Shown: positions 2,330 through 62,559 of the stretch, piece by piece | Position numbering within the stretch: the stretch's first letter is position 1 | Layout of the letters: each line of letters starts with the position of its first letter | The notes under the pieces: generated by a model | What the model saw: only the letters and a program-made list of their open reading frames with translations | Told to the model about the DNA's origin: nothing | Databases searched by the model: none | NCBI GenBank assembly: GCA_964016885.1 | Contig: OZ024740.1 | Span: 376,588,001-376,652,000 of the forward strand | Length of the DNA: 64,000 nt | Source: Eledone cirrhosa | Taxonomy: Eukaryota | Direction: 5' to 3' | Made by a program: the position numbers and the translations under genes

Positions 2330-3705
2330 TGGATCGGTCGATTGGCAGTATCGGTAGAGGGTCGGACGCCATGCTTTGCAGCATAGAGTTACGGCACTTT
2401 ATGATCTGAGCTCAAATCCCGCGGAGGTTAACTTTGCTTTCATCCTTATGGGGTCGATAAAATAAAGTAGCAGTCACGCACTGGGGTTGATTTAATCGAC
2501 TTCCCCTCCTCCCAAATTATTGGCTTTGTGCCTATATAAGAAACCATTATTATTGGATCGGTCGATTGGCAGTATCGTTAGAGGGTCGGGCGCCATGCTT
2601 TCTACCATAGTTACGTCCCTTTACTTCTGAGTTCAAATCCCGCCGAGGTTAACTTACGGGGTCGATAAAATAAAGTACCAATAATATACTGGGTAATTGC
2701 TGGCCTTGTGCCAAATGTAGAAACAATTATTATTGGATTGGCAGTATCGGTAGAGTGTCAGATACCATGCTTTCCAGCAAAGAATTATGTCCCTTCCCAC
2801 CGAGGTTAACTTTGCCTTGCATCCTTACGGGGGTCGATAAAATAAAGTACCAGTAATGCACTGGGATAATTGCTGGATTGAGCTAAATGTAGAAACAATC
2901 ATTATTAATATTTTGCGCATTATCACTGCATTACAGAGGTGAGCTCTGTTTGCCTTGTGTAGGTGCAGTGTTGTTTTCGGTGGTAATGATTCTATTGTAT
3001 GGAGAATATTCTTCGCAATATGTGTGCGATGCGTAATAGGGCTATATTTTGCATGCTGTATATACATATTTGTACATCCAGGGGGTTTCGTTATGTATCT
3101 GTCTTTGTGTCATTTTACCATTCCTAGAGCCTCTATACTTATAAGTATTTTGTCTGTCCTCATCATCCACATTCTGATTTTTTCTATCTCTAGATCTTTC
3201 TATTTGGATATTATTATTATTGCCATTCCGAGTTCAAATCCCGCCGAGGTTAACTTTCGATAAAATAAAGTACCAGTAATGTACTGGGTATTTGCTAGCC
3301 TTGTGACTAAAATAGAAACAATTATTATTGTGAATTGGCAGTATCGGTAGAGGTCGGACACCATGTTTTGACGCATTGAGTTACGGCCCTTGCTATCTGA
3401 GTTCAAATCCCGCCGAGGTTAACTTTGCCTTTCATCCTTACGGGGTCGATAAAATAAAGTACCAGTAATACACTGGATAATTGCTGGCCTTGTGCCAAAA
3501 GGTGGAAACAATTATTATTGTGGATTGGCAGTATCGGTAGAGAGTCGTACACCATGCTTTGAAGCATAGAGTTACGTCCCTTTACGGTCTGCGTTCAAAT
3601 TCCGCCGAGGTTAACTTTGCCTTTCATCCTTATGGGTCGATAAAATAAAATACCAGTAATACACTGGGTAATTGCTTGCCTTGTGAAAAAGTAGAAACAA
3701 TTATT
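2330..3705 (+). mobile_element. Head-to-tail cluster of six tRNA-derived SINE copies (approx. 2330-2545, 2553-2728, 2733-2900, 3226-3325 5'-truncated, 3329-3515, 3519-3705)
   Basis: Repeated unit: TGGCAGTATCGG (A-box-like), GTTCAAATCC (B-box), GCCTTTCATCCTTACGGGGTCGATAAAATAAAGTACCAG (Nin/Deu-domain-like core), ending AGAAACAATTATTATT. Confidence 0.9.
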
Positions 3706-4400
3706 ATTTTCATTTCTTTTATCTTGCTTTAAGTTCATATGAGTTATCACCAAGTCACAACCAGTGACCTCAAAGCAACAAGGTCTGCCATGTTCAGGAA
3801 ATACATACACACACACTCATATACACACACATGTATCTTTAGGCGTTTACACTTGTGATATACTTTTATCGACAGAATCTTCCTTAGTATATAGGCAGTT
3901 CCCATTAGTACCATCTTTTGTATTTCTTCTATACGCTGGTTTCTTGAGATTTGGGATAAGTAATCATTAGAACCCTTAGGTATCATTCCTAGAACGCCTA
4001 CAACTAGTATTGTTAAAGCTCTCAACTTTCACATTTTTCCAATCTATTTCCAGGTCTTTATATTTGCGCAACTTTTCAAATCTTTTTACAAATACATTCT
4101 TGTCTATAGGAATGGCCATCTCAATTATCAGGCATACCCTCTGTTTAAAGTATATAATTATTATTTTATGACACAGTGTAGGGGAAATATGCAACATGTC
4201 ACAAGGGCATCAGACAGATAATATTTTTCTTATATTGTGCGCAAAGGTGATTTTTGTATGACACCAATCTTGCATGACTTTCTCATCCGCTTTAAGAAGT
4301 CTTGAAGGTTTAAAACCCTGATCACTACTAGTCTCTCGTTCCGATTTCCCAATCATATTCCAAAGAGTTTTAATATTTCCACTTTCAATTCGGACCACTT
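3700..4400 (-). mobile_element. 5'-truncated, decayed R4/Dong-clade LINE 3' end (restriction-like endonuclease domain)
   Basis: ORF fragments CLIIEMAIPIDKNV..KRFEKLRKYKDLEID and VVGVLGMIPKG..IQKMVLMGTAYILRKILS parallel the C-terminus of the 33685-35703 ORF ([29 protein letters not shown]). Ends at a TAA tract. Confidence 0.8.
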
Positions 4401-9101: not shown

Positions 9102-9288
9102 TTGGATTGGCAGTATCGGACTAGGGTCGGACGCCATGCTTTAACGAATAGAGTTACCCCTCTTTCTATTCTGATTTCAAAATACCGCCGAGGTTAACTT
9201 TGCATTTCATCCGTACGGGGTCGATAAAATAAAGTACCAGTAATGCACTGGAATAATTGTTGTCCTTTTGCCAAAAGTAGAAATAATT
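9102..9288 (+). mobile_element. SINE copy (same family)
   Basis: Same head, core and tail as the 2.3-3.7 kb copies. Confidence 0.9.
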
Positions 9289-12200
9289 ATTTTAATGTAT
9301 GTGTTGTTAATAGTATAGCAGAACGGAAGCTCCAGGAAATTGAATATATGATTGGTAACTACTTCTGGTTGAAACCAATTCATTTAAGTAATTCCCCTGT
9401 GGAAGACATCAGTGTAGCAGCATTTTGCTTCTACTGCCTTGTAAATGTTCTGTCATTTAACTAAGTAATAAGCTTGTTATATGAGCCATTAGTTGCAAGA
9501 GCAGCCGAAAGCAGCAGCAGCAGCAGCAGAAGAAGAAAAAGAAGAAGAAGAAGAAGAAGAAGAAGAATGAAGAATGATGGGGAGGATGGGGAGGAGAAGA
9601 AGATACCATGATAATGGACATGATTATGTATATTATAATGATGGTTTGAATGATGTGAACGTCAATCATATTTCAGTTTTAACTGAATATTGGATGGCAA
9701 AGACTAGCTTCATGTTTTCCTTTCTGATTGATTAACCAAGTAACTGTTCTAGATTAATTATATCGTTAGTATCGCTTCACTTCAAATCATTGTCTTTTGT
9801 AATGGTATAATTTTTGCCTACTACTTCTGAATTTTAAAGCAATTCGCAATCAAATGGTGTTCATTAATTTATTTTCGCAATTATATCTTTTTTATGTAAA
9901 GCTACATATCTTTATTACTATATTCTCAGTGACAAAGGCTCATTAGTTCGCGTAATTTAACAGTAAAATCTGGGAACATCATCATTGGCTCCATCTTCTA
10001 AGAATTTGATGTGGTACCTACATTACTTTACAGTTCAAATTTACGAATAAATATGTTATACATCTAATAACACAATTTATTCCATTCCTGCAAAAGTACT
10101 TTGTGGATATTTTGTAATGTGTAACTTAACTGTCAGCCTTCTACGCATCTGAAATATGGTTATGTGTCTGGTTTTATAGCGTTCGGCAAATTTAATGTAG
10201 TTATTAAAATTTATTGTATTTATTGCATATATATATTTACCATTGCTTTTGTTCGGTTGTACTGTGCTGTGTATTGCGCCATCTCATCAACGTATAGATA
10301 CGCACAAATATCTGACAGAACAATTACATTTAAGCTGCATGTCTCCTTAGAGGGAAAATCGTTAGTAAAACATAAAATGAAAATAACGAATATTGAAGTT
10401 GTTATGGACATATATAAATGATATATAAAAAATGTTTCTTGTATGATTATGTTATTTACAATATAGAACCAATGCCGAATTGCAGTTGAAAAAGTCGATA
10501 AAATGTTTATAAGTGACTTTATTCCTAACAATCTCTTGATTACCGAAGATGAGATATGAGCCAATGAGAATTCCTCTGTGCGGTTTTTCAACCTACTGAA
10601 AATAACAATCAAACCTTTCTCAAATCATTATCATGTTAGATATAACAGTCCAAGATATGCAGAATATATGTTTAACTTGGCTGAACCCCTTTTAAAATCA
10701 GCTTATTTGTAAAACGTCAATTCAATATGAGCCAAGCGGTACATTTTCATGCCCTAACCAATTACCAAACACTGAAATAACACCACTCACACAGCACTTA
10801 CGCAATGGAATTACTACTAAGTAATAAGCGATTGTACATACCATAAACAATACACGCCCAATGAGATATCACACTCGTACATAATCTACAGCCAACATTA
10901 TAACATCAATAACTCACATAACTCACATCCTACACATTTGCCACCAATTTAGATAAAACATCCTTCCCATTACCGACACTATACACACGAAGTAAAACAA
11001 GTCACATTGGGCACATTCTACTCAACTGATGAAATACAGAAATCACACAAACATATACATCCAGTGATTTTGTGTACTTTGACTGGATGTATTAGACATT
11101 CAGTTCTATGTTGTGTCTATAGACAACACGAAGAAAATAATTCCATTTTTGTTTTCTGTTTCTCTGGGGTAGTAGGAGGGAATGCAATCTAATACAAATG
11201 ACGAAGGAGTAGAACGGAGTGCTTTAGGTTAGCTTATTTTACCCATCACTCAAAACATTACGCTGGAAGTGTGAGTTTTGTGATGGGTGCCTCGTCATAA
11301 AAATATTAACATTGATCTCACAAAAAACATATTGCTGTTTTGTTGGATATCATATAATATTTACGTTTTAAGTACAATATGAACGAAAACTTGACTTTTG
11401 GATTCATTTGCAATATAATTTCACCATGGAAGCTCATTACCAAGTATGATGCTTCGTTTACTGAAGAGATAGGTTCACCATCATTTTCATTGTATTTTTA
11501 ATAAACCAAGTTTGCAACATAATGTTTAATGGAAGTATAATGTGAAATATAACGTGCATCAATTATCACCATTAATGTTTCCTCCTGATATTATATTGTT
11601 AAAGTCCATGGAACATAATTAAATACATTTCTGTAATATTAAACCTCTCACAGAATAAAGCTGCCATGGGGATAATGAATAATTTGTATTAGATTCTGAA
11701 TGTTATGTAATGAGAATTATATTGGGTATGTCTTTATGAATGATGTAATTATCTTGCACATAGATAGGAAATTAAACATAGGAATGTCGTTGTAATCTTC
11801 TCGAAAATGTATAATATCGTGTTAATACTAGTTATTTGAGCGAATGCCAGTTACTCCTAGTTTTATCTGAAGTCGACAAAATGAGAAATAGTCAAAATGT
11901 TAAACGTCGATTTCATCAACTATAACTTAAAGTCCACAAATCTTTCTTTTGCATTAAGATTGTTAAATGTAGTCGCTTGTATAACTTACGCAAAGTCAGA
12001 ACACTATATACCATTACTTATAAGAAGGAGTTTGCATTAATATACGTCATTTGATTTCATAATGTTGTATCTTAATGGTCCATAATTAATGATAATTAAT
12101 ACCTTTGAAAATTCCCCCTAATGTGATTAGTTTTATATTGTAATCTATATTAACTTTTCGCCTTTTACTAAACAGAAGACAATAAAATTACACAATGCAC

Positions 12201-13113: not shown

Positions 13114-13859
13114 CGATGGGAGAAGAGGAGAACATATTGAGAGGAAGGCAAAACTATGATTATAGACCTCTTATAACTCCCGGTATATATTTATTTCGTT
13201 TTTCGTTCCTTTAATTTCTGCTTTCCAACGTTCCTTCAGTGAAGAAACGCAACTGCCAGTAATGCAATGATATTGATTGAAAATATCTGGGAATGACTAC
13301 ATGATAATGACAATAACGGCCTTTTACACTGTATCAAAGTGAATATTCTTAGGAAGTACTTTTGCTGAAAAGGACACAAACTAATTTCAGGTACACCAAA
13401 TTAATGTTTGCATCGATGTAATTTGGTAAAACCATTAGACAGTCGGAAAAGTGTTTTGTGGTGTTTGTGTCTACTCTCTGCGATCTGATTTCAAATCCCA
13501 CTGAACATAATGTAGTAGTACAAGTTGGTTGTATTGGCAGAATTGCCACTGCCCATTGCGCTGTAAATTCAAATCGTAGTGGCTTACATGAGAGGTAGAA
13601 TTAATCAATCGCCCCTTTTAACACCATTCCCTTGTTGTGAATAGCAGCAAGTTCTCCTAGAAATTCCAGAATAAAGAAAAACATCATCGGATAACATACT
13701 CAGAAAGCAAGACGGTGTATATATGACGCAATAAGGGATTGCCCCAACCAGTTTCACCTTCAATAACATAAAGTATAATTAGAGATTATTGTTAAATATA
13801 TAAATTTAAATATATATAATTCTCCGTATATTACTGGTAACTAATTATTACAGTTCAAC

Positions 13860-14040
13860 GGGCGGTGGATTGGCAGTATTGGTAGTGGATCGGACACCAT
13901 GCTTTGACGCATTGAGTTACGGCCCTTGCCATTCTGAGTTCAAATCCCGCCGAGGTTAACTTTGCCTTTCATCCTTACGGGGTCGATAAAATAAAGTACC
14001 AGTAATTGCTGGCCTTGTGACTAACGTAGAAACAATTATT
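13860..14040 (+). mobile_element. Full-length SINE copy with target-site duplication
   Basis: Starts GGGCGGTGGATTGGC. AATTATTACAGTTCAAC is present at 13843-13859 and 14034-14050. Confidence 0.92.
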
Positions 14041-14588
14041 ACAGTTCAACAGTATATTAAAATTTAAAGCATGATTAAAAACTTAGTGAAAAAACTGAAC
14101 TAAAATTAAATTAAAATCGCTTCACTTCTATCTTGCTTCTATCTGCCTCTACCCTCTGCATTGATAGTGCATCAATTAGCACCATTTATAGTTTATTAAA
14201 ACTACATGAAACATTAAATAGGATTAATATAATTAATCAACATTTCTAGCGCAGTATCCGACGGTAGGAACATTTAGTGCCAAATTAAATATTAGATGCG
14301 CGAAGAAACATGTTGAAGAAACATGTTGCTAGTTAATCTAAAAAACATGTTACTTGGTAATCTAAAATACTATTATATTTAAAAGAAAGGGACTAAATTA
14401 TAATACATTAATTTGTTTGTGTGAAGATTAATATAGATTAAATTACAGCTTTTAGAAATATTGAATGTTGACTCGGTTTCGACATTTAGCTTTCTCTCTC
14501 TCTCTCTCTCTCTCTCTCCATCTCTCTCTTTGTATACATATATGTGTGTATGTGTGTGTATGTGTGCGTATATGTGTATGAGTGTGTC

Positions 14589-14788: not shown

Positions 14789-15043
14789 TCTTTAATTTGG
14801 GTATAAGATGTGAAATTAAAATCTATTATAAATGAAAGTGAGGCTGAAATAAAATAAATCCCGGTGTGATAATAAAGAATCGGTAAGATAAATGTGTAAA
14901 GAATATAACTGTTAAATAGAAAGAAGTGTTCAAAGCATCTAATTGGATATGAGAGGTGGAAAGAATGTGTGTGTGTATTTGCGTGTATGTATGTATGTAC
15001 TTATGTATATTAATCTTCATGCGTGTGTGTATATATATATATA

Positions 15044-15291
15044 TAAATTAATAAAAATAATGAATAAAAACAAAGAAACAGTTCCTTATACTAAAAAATT
15101 CATTTTTTAATTTAAGGACCTGTTTCTTTGTTTTTATTCATTATTTTTATTAATTTATCTTGACTCTGTTTTCCTGTATTTTTCATCTGAAAAAAAAATG
15201 TTGAATACATCTTCTCTTTTCATGATATTCGGATTACATTGAGTTCTTCATACGGATTGGACACTACCGTACATTTTGGTAGATTTATCTA
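15044..15291. mobile_element. 248-bp fold-back mini element made only of the terminal (pLTR) sequence of the 38186-42916 Penelope-like element
   Basis: About 55-bp inverted arms around ~15100 plus a ~135-bp tail. Near-identical to 38186-38245 and 42730-42916. Flanked by (TA)n on both sides. Confidence 0.88.
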
Positions 15292-15498
15292 TATATATAT
15301 ATAAGTTTATGTCGGGTTCAATCGTGGGTAATCACAGTAAGGTACTCAATACAAAGCAGAGTATGAATATTTAATATAGAAAAGCTTCTCCAGCACTAGA
15401 ACTGTTTCATTCGGGAGAAATCAGCAGCGCAAAAGTGACACAAAGGAGACTGAGGTTAGCTGGACATGGTCACCGACATCCAGAGTTGACACTGCACT

Positions 15499-17340
15499 TG
15501 TTATTTTAATACATATTTGCTCTACGGTTATTATATATTTGATATATATTTATCCTTATCGAACCCTCTTTGAATTTTAGTATTCACATTTATTATTATT
15601 ACTATTTGGCTCCCAGGGTTGACCACTCTATGGACTTATGTTCATCATGCAGAAACAACATCTGGATATTTCTACAAAGAACATACCCGTACCAAGCAGG
15701 AGGACATACCTAAAACTCCTGATACAGAAAACAGACTCGTTCATTAAAAGCTTGCGTTGGCGTGCCTTTTATTTAGATAATCAGAGAAAAAGCGGACAAC
15801 AAACAATATAAATTTGGGTTTAAAACTTACTATAACCCTCCGAGTAACCCAGCATTGCTACCCTTCGAAAATGATGTCTTGGAACTCATACGGAGTATCA
15901 AATTTTGGAATAGGAACAATTCTTTCCTGCAGGACCTGAATGATTAGAATTCCTTCTATTAAAGATTCTAATGCCGTGCACGTCCACGCCGACAAAATTG
16001 GCAATCTGTATCAAGTGGAGCGTAGTACTTACCATCAACTGCTAGATAAATAATGCTGTAACTATCGATTACCGTGAAACTAATCCGAGTGGCATTAATG
16101 ACATCAACGATGCAGGGTTTAAAATCACCTCTGATCTCAACATCCTGGACCGGATTGAACCTCTAGACCCTATTCCTCCCCACTTTACCCTGAAGGATCA
16201 CAAATTCAATTTCCCGAACAGCCCCTCTATTGGCCTTATTAACACTTGGAAGACCGATTTATGTAGACTTAGTAAAAGGATTTTAGATAGAATTATACCT
16301 GAAATTAGAAGCTTGGCCCCTCTTGCACTGTGGAACAATTCTTTCGTGGTGATTGATTAGTTCAACGGCATATGCAACAAGGAACATTGCCGTTTTATCC
16401 AATTCGGCATCAATAACTACTACTCCTCCATCACTTTACCACTTCTTCTTAGAGCTATCAATTTCGCTTAAACGCTCACAGTGGTTATGGATTTCGAGTT
16501 GATGTCATCCTCAATGACCGTAAGTCGGTGATTAATTTCGACGGCTCTATTTGGGTTAAAAAATCTAATAGTACCCCATTCGACGTGAGTATGGGCGCCA
16601 GCGATTGTGCGGCGGTTACTGATCTTATCGGCCTTTTCCTTCTTTTCTCTATCAAGGAAGAATTCCCCAACGCGGGCGGTGGTTTGTACCGTGATGAGGG
16701 CCGTTTGACCATGACAAAGTGCGGCCCACACCTTTGCGACAGGTTCAGAAAAGAACTAACAGCCTTCTCTAAAGGCTTCAACCACTCCATTCAGGTTGAG
16801 GCCAATCTCTCGGACGTTAATTACCCCGACGTTACCCTCACTTTGTCGAATGGCTTGCACTACCCGTATAGAAAGCCGAATAATACGCTTAATTACATAA
16901 CTAAGCATTCTAACCATCCTGCCAGCATAACCAAGAACCTGGTAAGAAACGTTTCTTTGAGGCTTTCCCGTCTATCTACAAACGAGCATATTTTCACCGA
17001 CCATTCCAATGAAGCTCTTGCTCGGGGTGGATTTGTCGATAAGGTAGCATATACCAAGTATGAGCATAGACCTAGGAAAAATAGATCCCTACGCATTATA
17101 TGGTATAACCCACCATATAATAGGAAGGTGGCCATACAATTAGCTAAGATCTTTCTCTCCCTTATTATGAAGCATTTCACACCAGCACATAAATATGATA
17201 ACATTTGTAATAGAAATACCATTAAACTGTCTTACTCTACGACTCCTAACCTTGCACATAACATCACTGCTTCAAATATAGCTAAATTACCTAGCCGTAG
17301 GAACACGCGCAACCCTGTAGCTAGTACTAACTGTAATTAA
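15499..17340 (+). mobile_element. Decayed Penelope-like element (Naiad-type RT), broken off at the start of the Cys motif before GIY-YIG
   Basis: YSTKNIPVP..SLRWRA N-terminus, FDVSMGASDCA, GGLYRDEG, YRKPNN..YI...SNHP, IIWYNPPY, NRNTIKLSYS. Stops and frameshifts in 15.6-16.5 kb. Confidence 0.9.
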
Positions 17341-17762
17341 GTATTACATGTTACGCCCTCAGGCTATAATCACCGTTCCTGTTTCTAGCGGTATTATCAT
17401 CCATCTTGTGGATATCTATTCGCCATAGCTTTTATGTTATTTCACCATGTGCTTCTGTGCATGGAGGTTAACTCGGTCTTAGATGTGATATTCCCAGGTA
17501 TATTGATTTATTTACCATCTTCATACTTTATTTCCCTTAGAATGATGAGACTAAACATCTGAAGAGTACCTGAGTCTCATGTGCCTTAATCGTAATCGAT
17601 AGTTTGTCTTCGATGATCGAATATATTGATTGTTTTTTCCTTCGATGATCGATTACATAGATTGATTTTTAGCCATACTCTCCAGGTATATATTCTCCTA
17701 TTGAATATGTATTTGGTATATATACAATATACCATATTTCTGTTACGATATATATATATATA

Positions 17763-20359
<2,597 letters not shown>

Positions 20360-20406
20360 CTCAATGATATTAAATAAATGGAAACTATGTTTCTAAAACC
20401 ATATTC

Positions 20407-20465
20407 ATTCTATTATATATATTTCAAGGGTACCAAAAGTTTGGTACGCTATCATCAGATAAAAT
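20407..20465 (-). ncRNA. Type I hammerhead ribozyme (left inverted arm)
   Basis: Minus strand: attttat-CTGATGA-tagcgtaccaaacttttggtaccctt-GAAA-tatata-TA-atagaat. Confidence 0.8.
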
Positions 20466-23330
20466 ATGAAGTGTGTTTTATAAATGTTGACATAACCAAG
20501 GAAAATACAACTTAACGGTTCGACTTTTCCTTGGATCGTGAAGGGATAAGAGAAGAAAAGTCAGATATTTCAAATTACTAAGATGAGTATGCAAATGAGG
20601 TTTAGGTAAAAGGGCTGAAAAAACTTTATTTTAGACGCGATGGATAATTTAAATAATTATGATAAGTTTTTGTATGCGTAGAAAAGAAGAGAAATGAAGA
20701 AGAGCTAGCATTTACGTTAATTTGGGGGAAAACAGTGGAATATGATTCCAGAGTTTAAATTAAAATTTATATTAAGTGTTATAATATTGTATATATAATC
20801 AATTAGATTTTATGGTGAATTATGGTTGTAAGTATTTTTATTTTATTTTAATAATTGCGTATGTATTAGTATTATAGAGATAGAAATAATTTACAATTAT
20901 TAGTTGTTTATATATCAAATATGAGTTACGAAGGATGTTGATTTTTGATCCCATAGTGATATCAAAATTGTTTTTTCTGTCGGCTCTTGTCGAGAGATGA
21001 TTATTAAATTGTATTAGTGTTTTACGTGTTGTTAGAATTAATTCATTTCATCACTAATAGAATTTAATAATCATCTCTGGACAAGAGCCGACAGAAAAAA
21101 CAATTTTGATATGATTATGGGATCATCTGACTCGGCGCAACTGACGGACCTCGTTGGATTATTTATTAATAATGTACTACATAGGAAAATTCCAGAAATG
21201 ACCGGAGGTTTATATCGTGACGATATGCTGCTTTTAATTGAAAACCATAGCAATAGTAAAATTAATAGGAAAAGAAAAATCCATAATACAATATTTCAAC
21301 AACTACAATCTTAAGTTAGAAATAGAGAATAACTACAAAATCGTTAACTTCTTAGATGTAACCTTAAACCTGAGCACATGTCTTTACTATCCTTTCCATA
21401 AAATCAACCAAAATCTAAATTATGTAAGTTTCAATTCTAATTATTCTAGAAGTATTAAAAACATTATTATCAATAGCGTCCAAAAATGGATTTCACGCAT
21501 CTCCGCTAATAAATATATCTTTTGATGATAAAGCTGAATATTATAATGAAGCTTTACATAGAGCAGGATACTCGAATAAAATTAAATACATAGATAACAA
21601 TAACATGACATATCATCCTAGTATTAAGTTAAACACTAAACAAAACAAAAAAACTAGAACTAGAAATATTATTTGGTACTCTCCCCCATTCTCATTAAGC
21701 GTTAAAACACCTTTAGCAAAGCTATTCTTTAAAGCACGAGATAAATGTTTTCCTAAAGCCCACAGATACCACTCTATTTTTAACAGACACACTATAAAAC
21801 TATCCTACTCTATGAACATAGCACAAAAAATAAATAGAATTAATAATAGAAACTTAAATTTAAACCCTACCCAAAGTAACCAACATAGCAATAATAATAT
21901 GTCTAACAATAATACTCAGAATAATAGTACCGTTCTGAACAACAATAACCCCAGTAAATGTAACTGTAGAATCAAATCAAAGTGCCCTTTACAAAATAAT
22001 TGTTTAGACAAAAACCCGTAGTTTATAAATGCACAGTTGAAACTTGAGACAAAATGTTTAACTATGTCGGTGCCACTTCAACAAAATTTAATGAACGCTG
22101 GAATAACCATAATCATATATTTAGGAGATCTGATTACAAATCTTCTACTTCACTTTCACATCTAATTTGGAACTTAAAAGACAACAATATAGACTATTCA
22201 ATATCTTGGGGAACGATTTCGATAGCAACTGCATACCGAAATATGGCTATATCAAGATTCTGTAAATTGTGTTTCGAAGAAATCTTTTATATAATTAACT
22301 GTCAAAACTCTATTAATCTCAGAACAGAATTATTTTCTTCTTGTAGATATCGCCAACATTCTACGTTCATAACTATTTCTAATTTATAATAGTCCTATAC
22401 ACCTTCAAAATGATCCTACCTTTTTAAAAATTTAAATGTAAATTTTTTTTATATTTTTAATATATTTAATATTTCTTTTTAATTTTTGATATCTCTAAAT
22501 TTTTTTTTAATATCTCTAATATTTCTTATATTTTTAATATATATATTTAATATTTTTAATTCCGACATTATTTTAATTCTGACATTATTTTTAATTCTGA
22601 CATTATTTTTCTAATGACATCCATCTAAATATATTTTTTTAGATGTAGATACATAATCTTTAAATGACATTCTGATAATTTACATTTTTGCTCTCTTTTT
22701 GTTATTCAAACATTCACATATCTGTCGACTAAATTAATTGATCTCACAGAAAATAATGTATAATTTTCTCTTTATATTTTGGAGTAAATTACTCATCAAA
22801 TTTAACGGTTAACAAACAAAATTCGAGTTATCTTTCCTTTCTCAATCATTCATAAACATATTATGTTTGATAATCTATATAACCTCGCTAAATAAATAAT
22901 ATTCTGAAAACATTTTCAATGTTGAACAACATTTTTGAATCGACAAATTGTTCTACTCTCACAACTTGAACCACCTATTTTTTAAGTAAAATAAAAATAA
23001 ACATCCTTCGTAACTCATATTTGATATATAAACAACTAATAATTGTAAATTATTTCTATCTCTATAATACTAATACATACGCAATTATTAAAATAAGATA
23101 AAAATACTTACAACCATAATTCTCCATATAATCTAATTGATTATATATACAATACTATAACTCATAATATATATTTAATAACGTTTTTTTCAGCCCTTTT
23201 ACCTAAACCTCATTTGCATACTCATCTTAATAATTTGAAATATCTTACTTTTTTTCACTGTCCAAGGAAATCTTGAACCGTTAAGGCATATTTTCCTTGG
23301 TTATGTCAAAATTTATAAAACACACTTCGT

Positions 23331-38185: not shown

Positions 38186-38242
38186 TAAATTAATAAAAAT
38201 AATGAATAAAAACAAAGAAACAGTTCCTTATATTAAAAAATT

Positions 38243-38383
38243 CATCATTTTACGATCGTTTCTAGGATATATATATGTGTGTTAGTATGTATATCATATA
38301 GATCTATGTAAATTTTTACAAACTATCAGAGGGAATATACATACCTACACATATATATATATATGCTGTCTTCAGAAATAATG
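38243..38383 (-). ncRNA. Type I hammerhead ribozyme with ~100-nt stem II (left arm)
   Basis: Reverse complement of the 42591-42728 motif; core intact. Confidence 0.82.
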
Positions 38384-41300
38384 ATATTTGTTTATTGAAA
38401 AAACCCAACAAATATTTAATATAATAGGTCTGTTTGGGAACAGGTTTTGAATTGACCAATAGAAAGGCAGTAAGTGGTCAAGATGGTAGAATAGTAGTAA
38501 TAGAACTTTAATTTAGGGGTAGAGGAAAGCAGATTTCAGTTTTGAATGGAAAGAGTATAATGAATGAAAAGATTATTTTGGGGATGAAAATAGGTCAAGT
38601 CGGTAAAAGGTACACGAAAAATTGATGTTATAAAAGAATAATGCTAATGTAAATATCTAAGGAGAATAAAATTTCACGATAAACGTGTTAGTGAAAAATA
38701 TCAATCTTATTCAAAATATAAGGAATTTACATCTATAAAAAGAAAATAAATTAATTAAATTGATAGGTATATTTATATTGATAAATTTATATTAATTCAT
38801 ATAGATATGATAAATAAGAGTTAGATGTAAATGAAGAGTGCTCTTAAAAACGATGGGAAAATAAAAAAATTATTATTATTATTATTGGGGGGATGGGTAA
38901 ATTTATTAGTGAGAAATAACAAATTTATATAGATTATAAGGAATATAGATTCATAACCTGAAATTAAAATATTTTATATGCATACTTATTGGTAAAAGAT
39001 AGCTTTAAAAGGGAAATAAAATTATGCAGTTCATTAGTAGTAGAATATTAATTATAGGTTAACTAATTTTAAAAAGATGTTATTATAATAATTTGTAAAG
39101 TGTATATTAATTAGGTTTATAATATTTAAAAGTTCTTCTCAATTTATGATTACATGATATAATTAATTCCTGTCGCTTATTTAATAGGATATCCTTAGAT
39201 TTCATTATTTCAAAAAGTTCCTGGGAACATAATCTACATTCATATCTATTATTTTGATAAGGGGTGGCCCTTTTTAGCACACTCCAGGTCAGGTTATAAT
39301 CTTTATTCCTTTTTCTATAATTATTAATTATTTCATCTAAGGATGTTTTATTAGCTAATGCAGCATTTTTAACACTGTGTTTGTGGGTATTAAATCTTAC
39401 TTTAAAATGGTTAGAAGTAGCTCCTATATATGAATAAGTTGAGTCCTTAGTGTTAATTTTACATTTATATACTATGTTATTGATAAGGCAATTTCCTTTT
39501 AATGGCAATTTGCTTTGTTTCTACATTTACAACCTTTCGTGAATGCTGTATCAGAGGAGATAGTCAAATTAGGTGTGGAATTTTCACGACTTGTTGTATG
39601 TGAATGAGATGGTAGTTTGCTTTGGTTTATTTTAGTATTATGGTTAGTTTGATGTATTGGTGGTATACATTTATATGCATTATAGGCACTTATATTTTGT
39701 TTGAGTAGGAGAATTTAACCGTTGATCTATTTAAAGTTTGATGGTATTTATGGTTTGGCGGGAGATTTTTCTCTAGGATAGCAAAAATTGTTTAGGTATA
39801 TTATCTTTAATTTGTAGATTAAATGGAGCATTATACCAAGTAACTCGTCTATTACGGTTTCGATGTTGTTTATTATTTTTATAGGATGTATCCTGATGTT
39901 TATTAAGAGAATTAGTGTTAGTGATTTTATTACACATATTTTTAGTTAGATTCATTGATTTAGGTGTTTTAGCCTGTTTGTTAGGAATTTTGTTATTAAC
40001 ATATATTGGAGTATTAGGATGAATGGTTTTTTCAAAGATACTATATTGTATATTAGAAGAGTTAGAGAAATTAAGTTTTATGTTGGTATTTTGGGGTATA
40101 GTGTGAGTGGCATTTAGATGTGTATATTTCATTTGGTGTTTGTTGGTAATATTGGGTTGTATGTTTGTAGTGTTATTGGTACAAGGTATATATACTAATT
40201 TGTTTTTGTGGCCACTTCTAGCTAAAGCTTCGTTATAAAAGGCCGCAGTTTTATCAAATACATCCTGGTTAGACGAAAGGTTAGAAATTCTGAGTGAGAT
40301 ATTATATGCTAGGTCTTTAAGGATAGATTTAGGGTGATTAGATTGTGAGTGTATGTAATGTAAGCTTTGGTTAGGTTTATGGTAAGGTTGGTAGATACCC
40401 GTAGATAAGTCTAATGTTATATCAAGGAAATTAACTACTTTACTTGTGTTTTCAAATGTAATATCTAGACTATAATAGTCTTTGAGGAAAGTTCTAATAA
40501 GTTTTTATTTTTTTCAATTTCTGATAGGCTAATGTTATTGGAAAGAAGAAGACACTCGTCACGATATAAACCTGGGGAAAAGAAGCATTTATGTTAAATA
40601 GAATAAAGAGGCCCACAAGATCGGTAATTTGTGCAGAATCACTAGATCCCATAGTAATGTTGAATAGATTACTATATGTGTTTCTGGTCCAGTATTCTTT
40701 CTGAAATTCCAGTAGTGTTTGTCTAGCATGTGTGATAATATTAATGTCATCCATAGTTAAGTTTGACCTATTTTTGGCAAATATCAAGGCTTTGTTCAGG
40801 AGTATAGGTGATATAGAGGAATAATAAGCATCTATATCGAATTGTAGAAATGAAGCAGAAGATTTATTTCTAATGTTAGTAAACCAGTTAATTACCTGGG
40901 ATGTGTTTTCCCAGAGTGGTAAATTAACATGTTTTCTTAATTGTGGGATGACTCTATCTAAAAATGTTTTACTAATGATGCCAATGTCAGATTTGGAAGG
41001 CATATAAGCCTTATAGAAGGATTAGAGTTAAAATTAGAATTGTGATCTTTCAGGTTAAAATGTGGTTTTTTCAGTGCCAAAGGTTCAGTTCTATCTTCAA
41101 TATTAAGTCTATTTACTATGTTGTGTGTTTTGTTGTTGATGTTGGTAAGTGCCGCATTGTTTGTTTTTTTTATCATTTTTCGTGAGTTCTTTATATATGA
41201 ACTCATTGTGCAAATTCCACACCTAATTTGACTATCTCATCTGATACAGCATTCACGAAAGGTTGTAACTGTAGAAACAAAGCAAATTTCCCATTAAAAG

Positions 41301-41910
41301 GACATTGCCTTATTAATAACATAGTATATAAATGTAAAATTAACACTAAGGACTCAACTTATTCATATATAGGAGCTACTTCTAACCATTTTAAAGTAAG
41401 ATTTAATACCCACAAACACAGTTTTTAAAATGCTGCATTAGCTAATACAACATCCTTAGCTGAAATAATTAATAATTACAGAAAAAGGAATATAGATTAT
41501 AACCTGACCTGGAGTGTGCTCATAAGGCCACCCCTTATCAAAATAATAGATATGAATGTAGATTATGTTCCCAGGAACTTTTTGAAATAATGAAATCTAA
41601 GGATAACCTATTAAATAAGCGAAAGGAATTAATTATATCATGTAATCATAAATTGAGAAGAACTTTTAAATATTATAAACCTAATTATTATAATAACATT
41701 TTTTTAAAATTAGTTAACCTATAATTAATATTCTACTACTAATTAACTGCATAATTTTATTTCCCTTTTAGAGCTATCTTTTCCTAAAATGTATACCAAT
41801 AAGTATGCATATAAACTATTTTAATTTCAGGTTATGAATCTATATTCCTTATAATCTATATAAATTTATTATTTCTCACTAATAAATTCCCCCCCCCCCC
41901 AATAATTAAA

Positions 41911-42100
41911 GGGCGGTGGATTAGCAGTATCGGTAGAGGGTCGGACGCCAAGCTTTCCAGCATAGTTACGTCCCTTTACGATCTGAGTTCAAATCCCGCC
42001 GAGGTTGACTTTGCCTTTCATCCTTACGGGGTCGATAAAATAAAGTACCAGTAATGCACTGGGTAATTGCTGGCCTTGTGCCTAAAGTAGAAACAATTAT
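41911..42100 (+). mobile_element. Full-length SINE inserted in one arm of the inverted repeat
   Basis: Absent from the mirror position (~38870-38890), which holds a plain (ATT)n tract. Confidence 0.93.
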
Positions 42101-42590
42101 TATTTTTTTTATTTTCCCATCGTTTTTAACAGCACTCTTCATTTACATCTAACTCTTATTTATCATATCTATATGAATTGATATAAATGTATCAATATAA
42201 ATATACCTATCAATTTAATTAATTTATTTTCTTTTTATAGATGTAAATTCCTTATATTTTGAATAAGATTGATATTTTTCACTAACACATTTATCGTAAA
42301 CTTTTATTCTCCTTAGATATTTACATTAGCATTATTCTTTTATAACATCAATTTTTCGTGTACCTTTTACCGACTTGACCTATTTTCATCCCCAAAATAA
42401 TCTTTTCATTCATTATACTCTTTCCATTCAAAACTGAAATCTGCTTTCCTCTACCCCTAAATTAAAGTTCTATTACTACTATTCTACCATCTTGACCACT
42501 TACTACCTTTCTATTGGTCAATTCAAAATCTGTTCCCAAACAGACCTATTATATTAAATCTTTGTTGGTTTTTTTTCAATAAACAAATAT

Positions 42591-42728
42591 CATTATTTCT
42601 GAAGACAGTATATATATATGTGTAGGTATGTATATTCCCTCTGATAGTTTGTAAAAATTTTACATAGATCTATATGATATACATACCAACACACATATAT
42701 ATATCCTAGAAACGATCGTAAAATGATG
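42591..42728 (+). ncRNA. Type I hammerhead ribozyme with ~100-nt stem II (right arm)
   Basis: cattattt-CTGAAGA-[..tatatatatgtgt.ggtatgtatat...atatacatacc..acacatatatata..]-GAAA-cgatcg-TA-aaatgatg: 8-bp stem I, palindromic stem III ACGATCGT, GUA cleavage after 42720. Confidence 0.85.
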
Positions 42729-42924
42729 AATTTTTTAATATAAGGAACTGTTTCTTTGTTTTTATTCATTATTTTTATTAATTTATCTTGACTCTGTTTT
42801 CCTGTATTTTTCATCGAAAAAAGTTTTGAATACATCTTCTCTTTTCATGATGTTCGGATTACATTGAGTTCTTCATACGGATTGGACACTACCGTACATT
42901 TTGGTAGATTTATCTACACACATA

Positions 42925-51603: not shown

Positions 51604-51914
51604 TATATATATAAAGAGAGAGAGAGATAAAGAATGCACGAAGTTAAATTTTCGGCTTTTGATGCGCTGAGAATAAAGGTATATATATATTAGTATAAAG
51701 ATAGTGCTGAAGCGCAGAAATGCTTTAAAGATAGCATATAAAATGAGGTGAAAACACCCTTAAAAGGCGGCAAAAGAAGTTCCCACTGGCTGCTATGAGA
51801 AAACATAGCATTTCTGCACTTGGGCAATTTCTTTATACTTATACATATATGCGTATGGTTGTGTGTGTAAACACTAAAGATAAATAACAAAGCAAACAAT
51901 GTTATTTAATAAAT

Positions 51915-52092
51915 GATGGTGGATTGGCAGTGTCGGCAGGGTCGCACACCATGTTTTGCCGCATAGAGTTACGGCCCTTTATTTTCTGAATACAATTCCT
52001 GCCGGGGTTAACTTCGCCTTTCATCCTTACGGGGTCGATAAAATAATGCAACAGTAATGCACTAGGATATTTGCCGTATAAATGTAGAAACA
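51915..52092 (+). mobile_element. Older SINE copy with TSD GTTATTTAATAAAT
   Basis: Family match; 14-bp direct repeat on both sides. Confidence 0.85.
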
Positions 52093-52169
52093 GTTATTTA
52101 ATAAATATATATTAGGTTAACGCTTGAAATACCAGGAAAAGTTCATTAACGTTACGGTCACTAGTTGCT

Positions 52170-52520
52170 TATCAGAAGATATAGTATGTACAAAAATACG
52201 CCCACACACAGTAGCATCCGAGAGGGGTGAGTAGGAAAGAGGTGGTAGCGAATACCTGCTGAGACATCGATTCACTCCTGCATTCGGAAACACATTTCTG
52301 TGTTTGCCAACGAATTTTAATAAATGGATATGACACTGAGTGGAGAGAAGAGCATTTACTGGAGTTAAGGATACTCATGGCTAGATTGCAGAGTTCACCT
52401 AACTGGAGGAAAAAGGACTCGTCTTCATATGATTGCGACAAAATGATTTGCAATCACTTGCTCGTAGGCATTGTGGAAACATCACAGAACAAACTCGCAC
52501 ATAACAAAGAAACAGATATG
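52170..52520 (+). mobile_element. Possible decayed Gypsy gag fragment
   Basis: Frameshifted translation resembles F..L..LA..C......MI.D.L.VGI; weak. Confidence 0.3.
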
Positions 52521-52649
52521 ACTTCATAGTACAGGAAATCAAGAAAGAGAAAGAGGCTACCTGTAATCTCGGTAACTAACAGGAAATGAACATGGATAGG
52601 AAAAACGAAAGTACGTAAACACATGCAGTTCTCAAATAATTGAGATGTG

Positions 52650-54300
52650 TTGTAGAAAGCAGTTTGCTACGTTGAAATGCCTTCAAATTCACAGATCGAG
52701 ATTGTGTTTGGAAACATGAAGACAGAATGAAGAATGGGCTCTTAGTGGAAAAAGAGCTCCAGATACTTCGAGATACGATCAACAACATAGGCAAGGAAAT
52801 CGTTCGCACGCTCAGTAGAGATGGAACGAACAATGTGCCAGGATGTAAAGGTAGGAGGGCTCGCCTCATAGAAGAGCTTATGAAGGAGAATAAGGGGTTG
52901 GGGAGCAGATTGATTGATACAGAGAAGTAGAAAATGCAAGTTGGACATTCTGTAATACCAAGAAGTTCCTCTGCCAGTTGGTGCAAATTGAAATGAAAGG
53001 AAACGGCTCATGGGGAATTACTGAAGAAGGTTCATCAACGATCCTTATAAGTATGCTGACGGAGTGTTTCAGAACGGCAGAAACGGTGACTTGATACGCA
53101 GCAAGGAAGAACTGGAATAACGCTTGCGCAATGCTTATAGTGATAATCTCCGATATATCCCTATGCCCCCAATGAGATGATAGCAAAGAAAAATTCGATT
53201 TCAGCCAACTTCGAATGAATGAAATCTGTGTCTTCATCAAAAGACCACGATCAAATAATTGTTTCTACCTTTGGCACAAGGCCAGCAATTAACCAGTGCA
53301 TTACTGGTACTTTATTTTATCGATCCTGTAAGGCGAAGTTAACCTCGGCGGGATTTGAACTCAGAATGGAAAGGACCGTAACTCTATGCTGCAAAGCATG
53401 CGTCCGATCCTCTACCGATACTGCCAATACAAACCACGATCTAATAATGCCAGGCCAGTAGGAAGTGCCATACAATGACTAAAGGAAGTGTCTCACTCTA
53501 ATCTGTTTCTCATTCTTAGAACAGATTGGAATGAAAAGCTGATTGTGGATTGCTGGACAAAAGCGATGGGCATCTACCTTCCCAAAGAGCACAATCCGTC
53601 TACACGAGACCATTTTAGGCCAATTTCCTTTCGGAATCTAGCTTCCGTGGGATTATAACTAAACGATTGATGACATTTCTGTTGGCTAATAGCTACACCG
53701 ATGGTACTGCACAGATAACTGGCATCTCATGTGTATTGGTGTGCATAAAACATGTCAACATGATATGGTTGCCATATAGACAGCCATGAGGGACAGAAGT
53801 GACGTGGGATTTGTGTTGTTTAACCTGGCAAATACTTTCGGGTTCATCCCACATAAATTGATTGACCTTGCTATGTACTTATTCTTGATACCTGCGGAGG
53901 TACGGAAACTGATAATGAAATATAACGTTTTTACATGCGTTTTTACCTCAAAGAACTGTTTGAACTCTGTGAAACCCAGCAGATATGAAATATCATGTTT
54001 CGTTGTATAGTTGTGGAAACTAGTTCTGACACACTGCTCTAGGGACAGACAGCAAAGCAAACATCTTTAAGGGGAATTATCGAAGCCAGCCGAAAGAGCG
54101 AACACTACATCTGGCTTAAAAAAGAAGATGAATGCTGCGTTTGAGACAATGAGAGGGATTGAGACGCCTTGCTAGGAGTCACAACACCAGGCTCATCGAA
54201 TTTCGGGCTGTTCTCCCCTAAGATTCTGATATTATGAAGGAGTTTCGTTACCTATATCGGTGGGAGGCACCGAGTAGCCTTGGTCTCACAGTGGAAGGGG
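52650..54300 (+). mobile_element. Decayed RLE-type LINE, HERO-like
   Basis: GRRARLIEELMKE, LPKE.N...FRPISF.N, VLFNLANTFGFIPHKLI (cf. LDLANAYGSIPH), terminal HYIWLKK. Confidence 0.6.
53253..53430 (-). mobile_element. SINE copy inserted into the HERO-like fragment, with 16-bp TSD
   Basis: ACCACGATC(A/T)AATAAT on both sides. Confidence 0.9.
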
Positions 54301-62331: not shown

Positions 62332-62516
62332 TGGATTGGCAGTATCGGTAGAGGGTCGCACGCCATACTTTCCAGCATAGTTACGTCCCTTTACGATCTG
62401 AGTTCAAATCCCGCCGAGGTTGACTTTGCCTTTCATCCTTACGGGGTCGATAAAATAAAGTACCAGTAATGCACTGGGTAATTCCTGGCCTTGTGCCTAA
62501 AGTAGAAACAATTATT
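62332..62516 (+). mobile_element. Young SINE copy with TSD ATTATTAAACTA
   Basis: Nearly identical to the 41911 copy; 12-bp direct repeat. Confidence 0.93.
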
Positions 62517-62559
62517 AAACTAATATATAAATTCAACAGTGAACAATATACAAATACAT

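Follow-up and report, generated by a model that had tools for sequence, protein, structure and literature searches.

Turning points of fold-back Penelope-like copies in Eledone cirrhosa likely record stops of reverse transcription rather than mainly ribozyme cleavage

A 248-bp insert within a 64,000-nt stretch of Eledone cirrhosa DNA (the whole stretch is referred to as the window) is one ordinary member of a genome-wide population of fold-back copies of a Penelope-like element (PLE). The points at which these copies turn likely record where reverse transcriptase (RT) stopped, rather than mainly where the predicted hammerhead ribozyme of the element cut its RNA. The fold-backs of this family have two fixed ends, heterogeneous junctions, two peaks of turning points, and a polarity in the lengths of their arms. 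The ribozyme leaves a second, smaller footprint among them; most templates were uncut, and cleavage in vivo is possible for a minority.

The insert (hereafter the mini insert) is embedded in (TA)n and consists of an inverted arm joined to a direct arm, both of which match parts of a 4.7-kb element at 38186-42916. Reference positions are those of this element in the window, and signed positions are counted from its predicted hammerhead cut (after 42720), with +1 being 42721, the first base past the cut.

15030..15043, no strand: (TA)n target, left flank of the mini insert, read from the sequence
15044..15103, minus strand: inverted arm, from the fixed short end (reference 42786, +66) to +6 (reference 42726)
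15102..15291, plus strand: direct arm, from +10 (reference 42730) to the fixed long end (reference 42916, +196), tail included
15292..15303, no strand: (TA)n target, right flank of the mini insert, read from the sequence

Positions 15043-15103 match 42786→42726 in inverted orientation with 98% identity, and 15102-15291 match 42730→42916 directly with 93-95% identity, with 2-3 nt of AT microhomology or overlap between the arms. The earlier note had described an insert sharing both termini with the 4.7-kb element 23 kb away and turning near the predicted cut, and this description holds: the left terminus corresponds to 38186 and the right to 42916, the measured spacing is 22.9 kb, and the arms reach +6 and +10. 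Neither end is sharp, each merging over a few nucleotides into the TA/CA flanks, and in full-length copies the element itself reads on with CTACATA. The further statement that the insert contains only sequence downstream of the hammerhead is mostly correct, except that +6..+9, the 3' strand of helix I and thus the last ribozyme bases, is present.

The 4.7-kb element is a decayed PLE with motifs of the Hydra clade. It is itself a fold-back, with arms of 3.0 and 1.7 kb. Its parts, and those of the pLTR to which the reference positions refer, are as follows.

38186..41191, minus strand: inverted arm, with the short end, the 3' UTR with hammerhead, and a broken RT-EN frame (amino acids 134-810 of the intact relative P0001)
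41208..42916, plus strand: direct arm, with a broken EN part (41225-41682), 3' UTR, pLTR, and tail
41907..42095, plus strand: SINE within the direct arm, missing from most sister copies
42513..42517, minus strand: CCAAT box (ATTGG on the plus strand), common to subfamilies A and B, with a putative promoter role
42592, plus strand: T0 (TC^ATT), the dominant 5' stop of both arms genome-wide and a likely transcription start
42592..42729, plus strand: type I hammerhead motif read from the sequence, with predicted activity and a predicted cut after 42720
42786..42786, plus strand: fixed short end, the outer end of inverted arms (86/108 exact, 98/108 within 3 nt)
42787..42916, plus strand: 130-nt tail between the fixed ends, 5' UTR in full-length copies, ending ~150-165 nt before the ATG

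Searching the animal's own genome (3.0 Gb) at the protein level, with 150 copies of 26,277 candidates scored, supplied 20 copies with long open frames; 93 homologues were found. The intact relative P0001 has a single 811-aa ORF in which RT and C-terminal GIY-YIG EN motifs were recognized by eye (YRDD, IVYKC..YIGAT); most pieces of the window copy are 77-91% identical to it. Pfam gave no significant match for five ORF pieces of the window or for P0001, nor did a PDB sequence search. Several full-length copies have the order CCAAT, T0, hammerhead, short end, long end, ~150-165 nt, ATG, and ORF, followed by a long 3' UTR and a second pLTR; the CCAAT, T0, and cut motifs occur in order upstream of the ORF in 7 of the 20 fetched copies, and a pLTR formed by a partial tandem flanks the ORF in L471, L473, L478, L479, and L485. 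The placement near the Hydra clade comes from comparison of motifs rather than from a phylogenetic tree: by eye we found RWR, CNCRNKANC, CRLC, CNH, no CCHH, and a (TA)n target, as well as DKT in four of the five ORFs shown (DKA in P0001, HKT in one). The marks given for this clade are RWK-like, DKT, CxCX5C, no CCHH, CxxC/CxH, and a (TA)n target (PMC8557442, section 11). Residues ~470-580 of P0001 form an Asn/Thr/Lys-rich stretch that recalls the N-rich inserts described for rotifer PLEs (PMC3846280).

The window also contains older, more distant PLE remains (15647-22368, plus strand, ~26-54% identity to P0001), ~350 bp to the right of the mini insert, and numerous members of one SINE family, partly arranged in tandem (2335-3720, 9103-9291, 13857-14041, 51910-53431, 62332-62517). 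A sub-lineage of the A1 copies defined below (L024, L027, L063, L070, L078) has an internal duplication, 42097-42613 followed by 42376-42916, which holds a second, partly mutated half-hammerhead (CTGAGGT variant).

The hammerhead was recognized by eye from CUGAAGA (42599-42605), GAAA (42709-12), the palindrome ACGATCGT, and GUA^, with helix I formed by 42590/2-42598 and 42721-42729, a helix II of ~100 nt, and a palindromic helix III. The core (CUGANGA/GAAA/NUH) with helix I and the palindromic helix III is kept in three subfamilies, and the helix I variants retain pairing across them (CAT/ATG, TAT/ATA, G-U). The G10.1-C11.1 closing pair of helix II is absent; nearly all copies have C·A at the base, with R-U and then G-C above it. 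Rfam at its gathering score gave no hammerhead match in the window. The cut triplet is GUA in A1 and A2, and GUU, a poorer hammerhead substrate, in B. In an RNA starting at 42592, helix I would be 7 bp long and end at +7, which is where the hot-spot arms described below stop; in the minimum-energy fold of this RNA helix I does not form. A competing hairpin is predicted between +1..+11 and +42..+52, since a second copy of the helix I partner at +42..+52 would let +1..+52 (window 42721-42772) fold into a rival of the ribozyme, possibly acting as a switch.

Exact tail patterns identified 316 A1 copies (the type in the window), 1,077 A2 copies, and 4,737 B copies in the whole genome, of which 100, 93, and 91, respectively, were analyzed in genome order and anchored only by their tails. 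Because the first copy search favors copies spanning the cut, it was kept out of the statistics, as were 13 tail-anchored A1 loci beyond the first 100 and seven B loci from other searches. Among the 284 direct arms, 251 end at the long end, 11 continue toward the ORF, and 22 do otherwise; an adjacent inverted, 5'-truncated arm was found in 98 of the 284 copies within the stretch examined. For 108 inverted arms adjacent to copies, the start coincides with the short end in 86 and lies no more than 3 nt from it in 98. The two fixed end points that had been proposed from one pair of copies are therefore family-wide, and they delimit the already known PLE tail, explained by two internal RT start sites (PMC11167929). 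Tail-only direct arms seem to cluster at +60..+70 (the short end) and again at +130..+155. An apparent "mini family" of B copies sharing 1 kb was rejected, as its members are really long direct copies with a low-complexity UTR.

The turning points are not uniform. Among 379 sampled arms (those of the window excluded), 109 end within 8 nt of 42592 where 9.6 would be expected, and the stretch -3..+10 holds 14 ends as compared with an expected 7.9 (P=0.03). Genome-wide counts of fold-backs with one anchor pair gave 823 loci with a gap of 285-340, which corresponds to 42592, ~193 with a gap of 16-70 around the cut, and 50 with a gap of 71-125 in the next window upstream; with a second anchor, a gap of 41-81 (about +26..0) gave 170 loci and the downstream window (gap 0-40) gave 29. 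Independent uniform stops would give counts that rise with gap length, and the hot spot near the ribozyme is therefore real, in agreement with the excess near the cut that the earlier note anticipated. As the dominant turning point lies upstream of the ribozyme core, with the 823-locus class turning 130-140 bases upstream of the mini-type class, most templates were uncut.

The mini-type class did not arise from one ancestor. At 37 of the first 38 hot-spot loci, the mini insert included, the junction could be resolved (the remaining locus, whose gap is pure TA, was left out), and these 37 have 34 distinct junction strings, come from at least two subfamilies, and have unrelated flanks. The flanks of the mini insert have TA runs alone in common with those of the 4.7-kb element and of one locus with the same junction (L032, C1:274.43 Mb), so that the mini insert is no segmental duplicate, the possibility for which a comparison of flanks had been proposed. 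Descent of the miniature copies as one MITE-like clone, or by segmental duplication from one deletion product, would account for the junction shared with L032 and for the three of 37 strings that repeat. Yet the mini insert differs from L032 by three substitutions and from five ordinary copies by only one or two, and given this and the junction diversity we consider such an origin highly improbable.

The earlier note had proposed that the template was the 3' self-cleavage product, with RT running to or near +1 and the ends trimmed by a few nucleotides at joining, which would produce a sharp peak at the cut. The hot spot does straddle the cut at 4-6 times the level of its neighbors, both arms stop together, and there is a sub-peak exactly at +1, but the peak itself lies elsewhere: of the 37 loci, 19 have their furthest arm ending at +5..+9, five at +1, one at +3, and four at +10 or beyond, and in eight this arm passes the cut. 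Real RNA ends appear to be copied to the end, as 25 of 31 pairs with both arms at T0 reach the T0 base. In A1, the ends at -3..+10 (mini insert included) amount to 7/100 direct arms (1.1 expected) and 5/25 inverted arms (1.0 expected), and four direct arms, joined to other parts of the element, end at +2/+3. This excess is confined to A1; it is lacking in B (1/124 arms), where GUU in place of GUA would agree with cleavage, but also in A2 (3/133), which has GUA.

Counted genome-wide, four-base windows gave 175 raw matches at -2..+2, as compared with 82 at -11..-8. The first 100 matches at -2..+2 were sorted by eye into 63 true ends (eight in one cluster), 27 read-through cases, and 10 helix-I microhomology joins; at -11..-8, ~75 were true ends, with ~14 palindromic joins, so that these by-eye tallies put the cut only ~1.3-1.8-fold above the adjacent window, with TTT microhomology inflating the count at +1. 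No peak of 3' ends was seen at the cut in a genome-wide inspection by eye (~3/32, compared with 3/19 in the control). In the account of an anole PLE in PMC11167929, moreover, cleavage is dispensable in vitro and RNA-seq ends at the cut are absent. Taken as the general explanation of the hot spot, the cleavage product as template thus seems unlikely to us.

Two observations at the cut are recorded here separately. One small fold-back (L043, G000:C18:14.41 Mb) has the 3' end of its direct arm exactly at the cut site, and there are ~3 such cases genome-wide, no more than in the control. At G000:C3:7.83-7.91 Mb, eight A and B arms in ~70 kb start at the cut directly after (TA)n.

The hot spot might also owe nothing to the ribozyme, if RT is released at a U-run of 6-7 nt (forming a weak rU:dA hybrid) that lies behind a hairpin, with the microhomology for joining the arms coming from A/T runs. 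The trailing arm usually stops within or next to the U-run (+9..+19), the arms overlap by 1-3 nt of A/T, a hairpin over +1..+52 is predicted, and microhomology is used at 52 of the 98 junctions, wherever in the element they lie. However, the equally AT-rich downstream window, which also has T-runs, contains 29 fold-backs as compared with 170, and the leading arms continue through the U-run as far as +5..+9; we therefore rate release at the U-run as quite unlikely.

The dominant stop, T0, is likely the transcription start inside the 5' pLTR, judging from its sequence context. The CCAAT box lies ~75-80 nt upstream, and TC^ATT is a sequence that we take to be initiator-like. Similar initiator motifs were noted in a pLTR in PMC3846280, and the D. 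virilis Penelope promoter likewise lies inside the pLTR (PMC2377424). A start inside the 5' pLTR would explain the abundance of short inverted pLTR copies. An extra G would be added where RT copies the cap at an RNA 5' end, and one precedes T0 in 21/76 arms as compared with 18/116 elsewhere; neither of two formal tests reached significance (P=0.14 and 0.18), and the cap signal is only suggestive. Since T0 is an ATT site and the endonuclease of the anole PLE prefers ATT (PMC11167929), T0 could alternatively be a DNA cut site. Two other candidates were rejected, namely a second hammerhead cut in trans at T0 (the site is NUC), as the following bases cannot pair as helix I, and an intron acceptor, as no AG precedes T0; for D. 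virilis, PMC4209133 places an intron acceptor at helix I.

A pattern designed to match arms that end at T0 gave 2,836 sites, the first 100 of which include, by eye, 23 SINE joins and three copies of an intact variant, and ~10 of the 109 T0 arms above are SINE joins. In many copies (L025, L117, L121, L125, L299, L360, L378, L495, L501) the SINE join falls exactly at T0, with PLE upstream sequence resuming beyond it in 14 of 21 examined and overlaps of about -3 to 14 nt. The varied SINE 5' ends and overlaps make these joins look independent; they reflect either preferential targeting of ATT or a jump of the PLE RT between templates at the RNA 5' end.

The earlier note left two routes for the fold-back itself, in which the cDNA either folded back or met a second cDNA. 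Snap-back of a long cDNA requires a direct arm at least as long as the inverted arm. Among the 98 pairs, the inverted arm is longer in 40 and the direct arm in 10 (P=2e-5), the other 48 being within 12 nt, and at the hot-spot loci the inverted arm goes further in 23 (mini insert among them) as compared with 11. The direct arm consists of nothing but tail in 19/98 pairs, where it could not have served as template for the inverted arm. Of the two routes, two separately primed cDNAs are therefore favored over snap-back. Both arms end at 42592 in 27/98 pairs, and the arm ends are correlated (P=7e-4), which at T0 is expected if one RNA was shared. The junctions comprise 52 with microhomology, 36 with an insertion, and 10 blunt. 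For the anole PLE, two internal RT starts, extension on both DNA strands, and a predicted dimer have been described (PMC11167929).

The reading that we prefer, and to which we give an even chance, is that the mini insert is a one-off PLE insertion made by joining two cDNAs whose synthesis had stalled at the base of the folded hammerhead. The two cDNAs would be primed at the two fixed start sites of the element, one from each side of a broken (TA)n target. If the mRNA starts at 42592 inside the 5' pLTR, both start sites would be only ~195 and ~325 nt from the RNA 5' end, and the RTs would usually run to that end, giving the class of 823 loci. The smaller class of ~193 loci, to which the mini insert belongs, would comprise the cases in which RT stops at +5..+10, where helix I would end (+7), with the short-site RT leading and the long-site RT trailing. 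At the mini insert, both cDNAs would have stalled there and joined head to head by the 2-3 nt of AT microhomology. The same reaction, when primed in the 3' pLTR, would produce long elements such as 38186-42916. Against such a stall, a 7-bp A-U helix is a weak barrier that the minimum-energy fold lacks, the U-run and the competing hairpin lie in the same zone, T0 as the start site is itself an assumption and could be an EN cut site, and the four A1 direct arms at +2/+3 fit cleavage better. A fuller scheme, which is possible but doubtful, has two RTs of one complex copying one mRNA from the two fixed sites, with ~4/5 of paired stops at the capped 5' end and ~1/5 at the hammerhead, and with the +1..+3 subset, clearest in A1, marking cleavage in vivo before reverse transcription. 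That subset, if truly so, would be the first in vivo record of a PLE hammerhead cutting RNA before reverse transcription.

The origin of the head-to-head inverted ends of PLEs and the role of the hammerhead are treated as open questions in PMC8557442, PMC11167929, and PMC3846280, and the counts from this family constrain both. The same counts are feasible in any PLE-rich genome, and they could be repeated in the existing in vitro system.

The architecture is known and the map of RT stops is new; a literature search outside subscription journals found no mapping of PLE inversion junctions to a transcription start or hammerhead. L1 twin priming also yields two cDNAs from two DNA ends, with an inverted 5' part joined by microhomology; the family here differs in having a fixed second primer site and arms that mostly cover overlapping sequence. 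Insertion units of EN+ PLEs, as described in PMC8557442 and PMC3846280, are similar in their head-to-head inverted arms, one-sided tail, AT-rich microsatellite target, hammerhead in the pLTR, and partial tandems in full-length copies. They differ in that their tail is 30-40 nt long and overlaps the ORF start, whereas the tail here is ~130 nt and non-coding, and in that the turning points here are strongly non-random with two peaks. For the inverted arms, self-priming on an antisense template was proposed in PMC3846280; the arm polarity here fits two sense-templated cDNAs better.

The Anolis Poseidon PAc (PMC11167929) is similar in its two fixed RT starts defining the tail, its AT-rich targets, and its mostly uncut RNA template, but it belongs to another clade and the start sites here are spaced more widely; the main text of that paper does not map the 5' ends or inverted junctions of genomic copies. 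With the C-terminal EN+ PLEs of the Hydra clade, as presented in PMC8557442, the element here shares RW(R), DKT (DKA in P0001), the CxCX5C linker, the lack of CCHH, CxxC and CxH around a conserved E and N, a hammerhead, and the (TA)n target. Its unit is longer (~4-5.7 kb between pLTRs), with a long low-complexity 3' UTR, an N-rich insert, and a helix II of ~100 nt. Finally, non-LTR retrozymes, as characterized in bioRxiv 10.64898/2026.07.22.740005, are likewise short non-coding pLTR derivatives with a type I hammerhead, but they form tandem direct repeats with a whole hammerhead in each unit, whereas the mini insert is a single fold-back that lacks the catalytic core.
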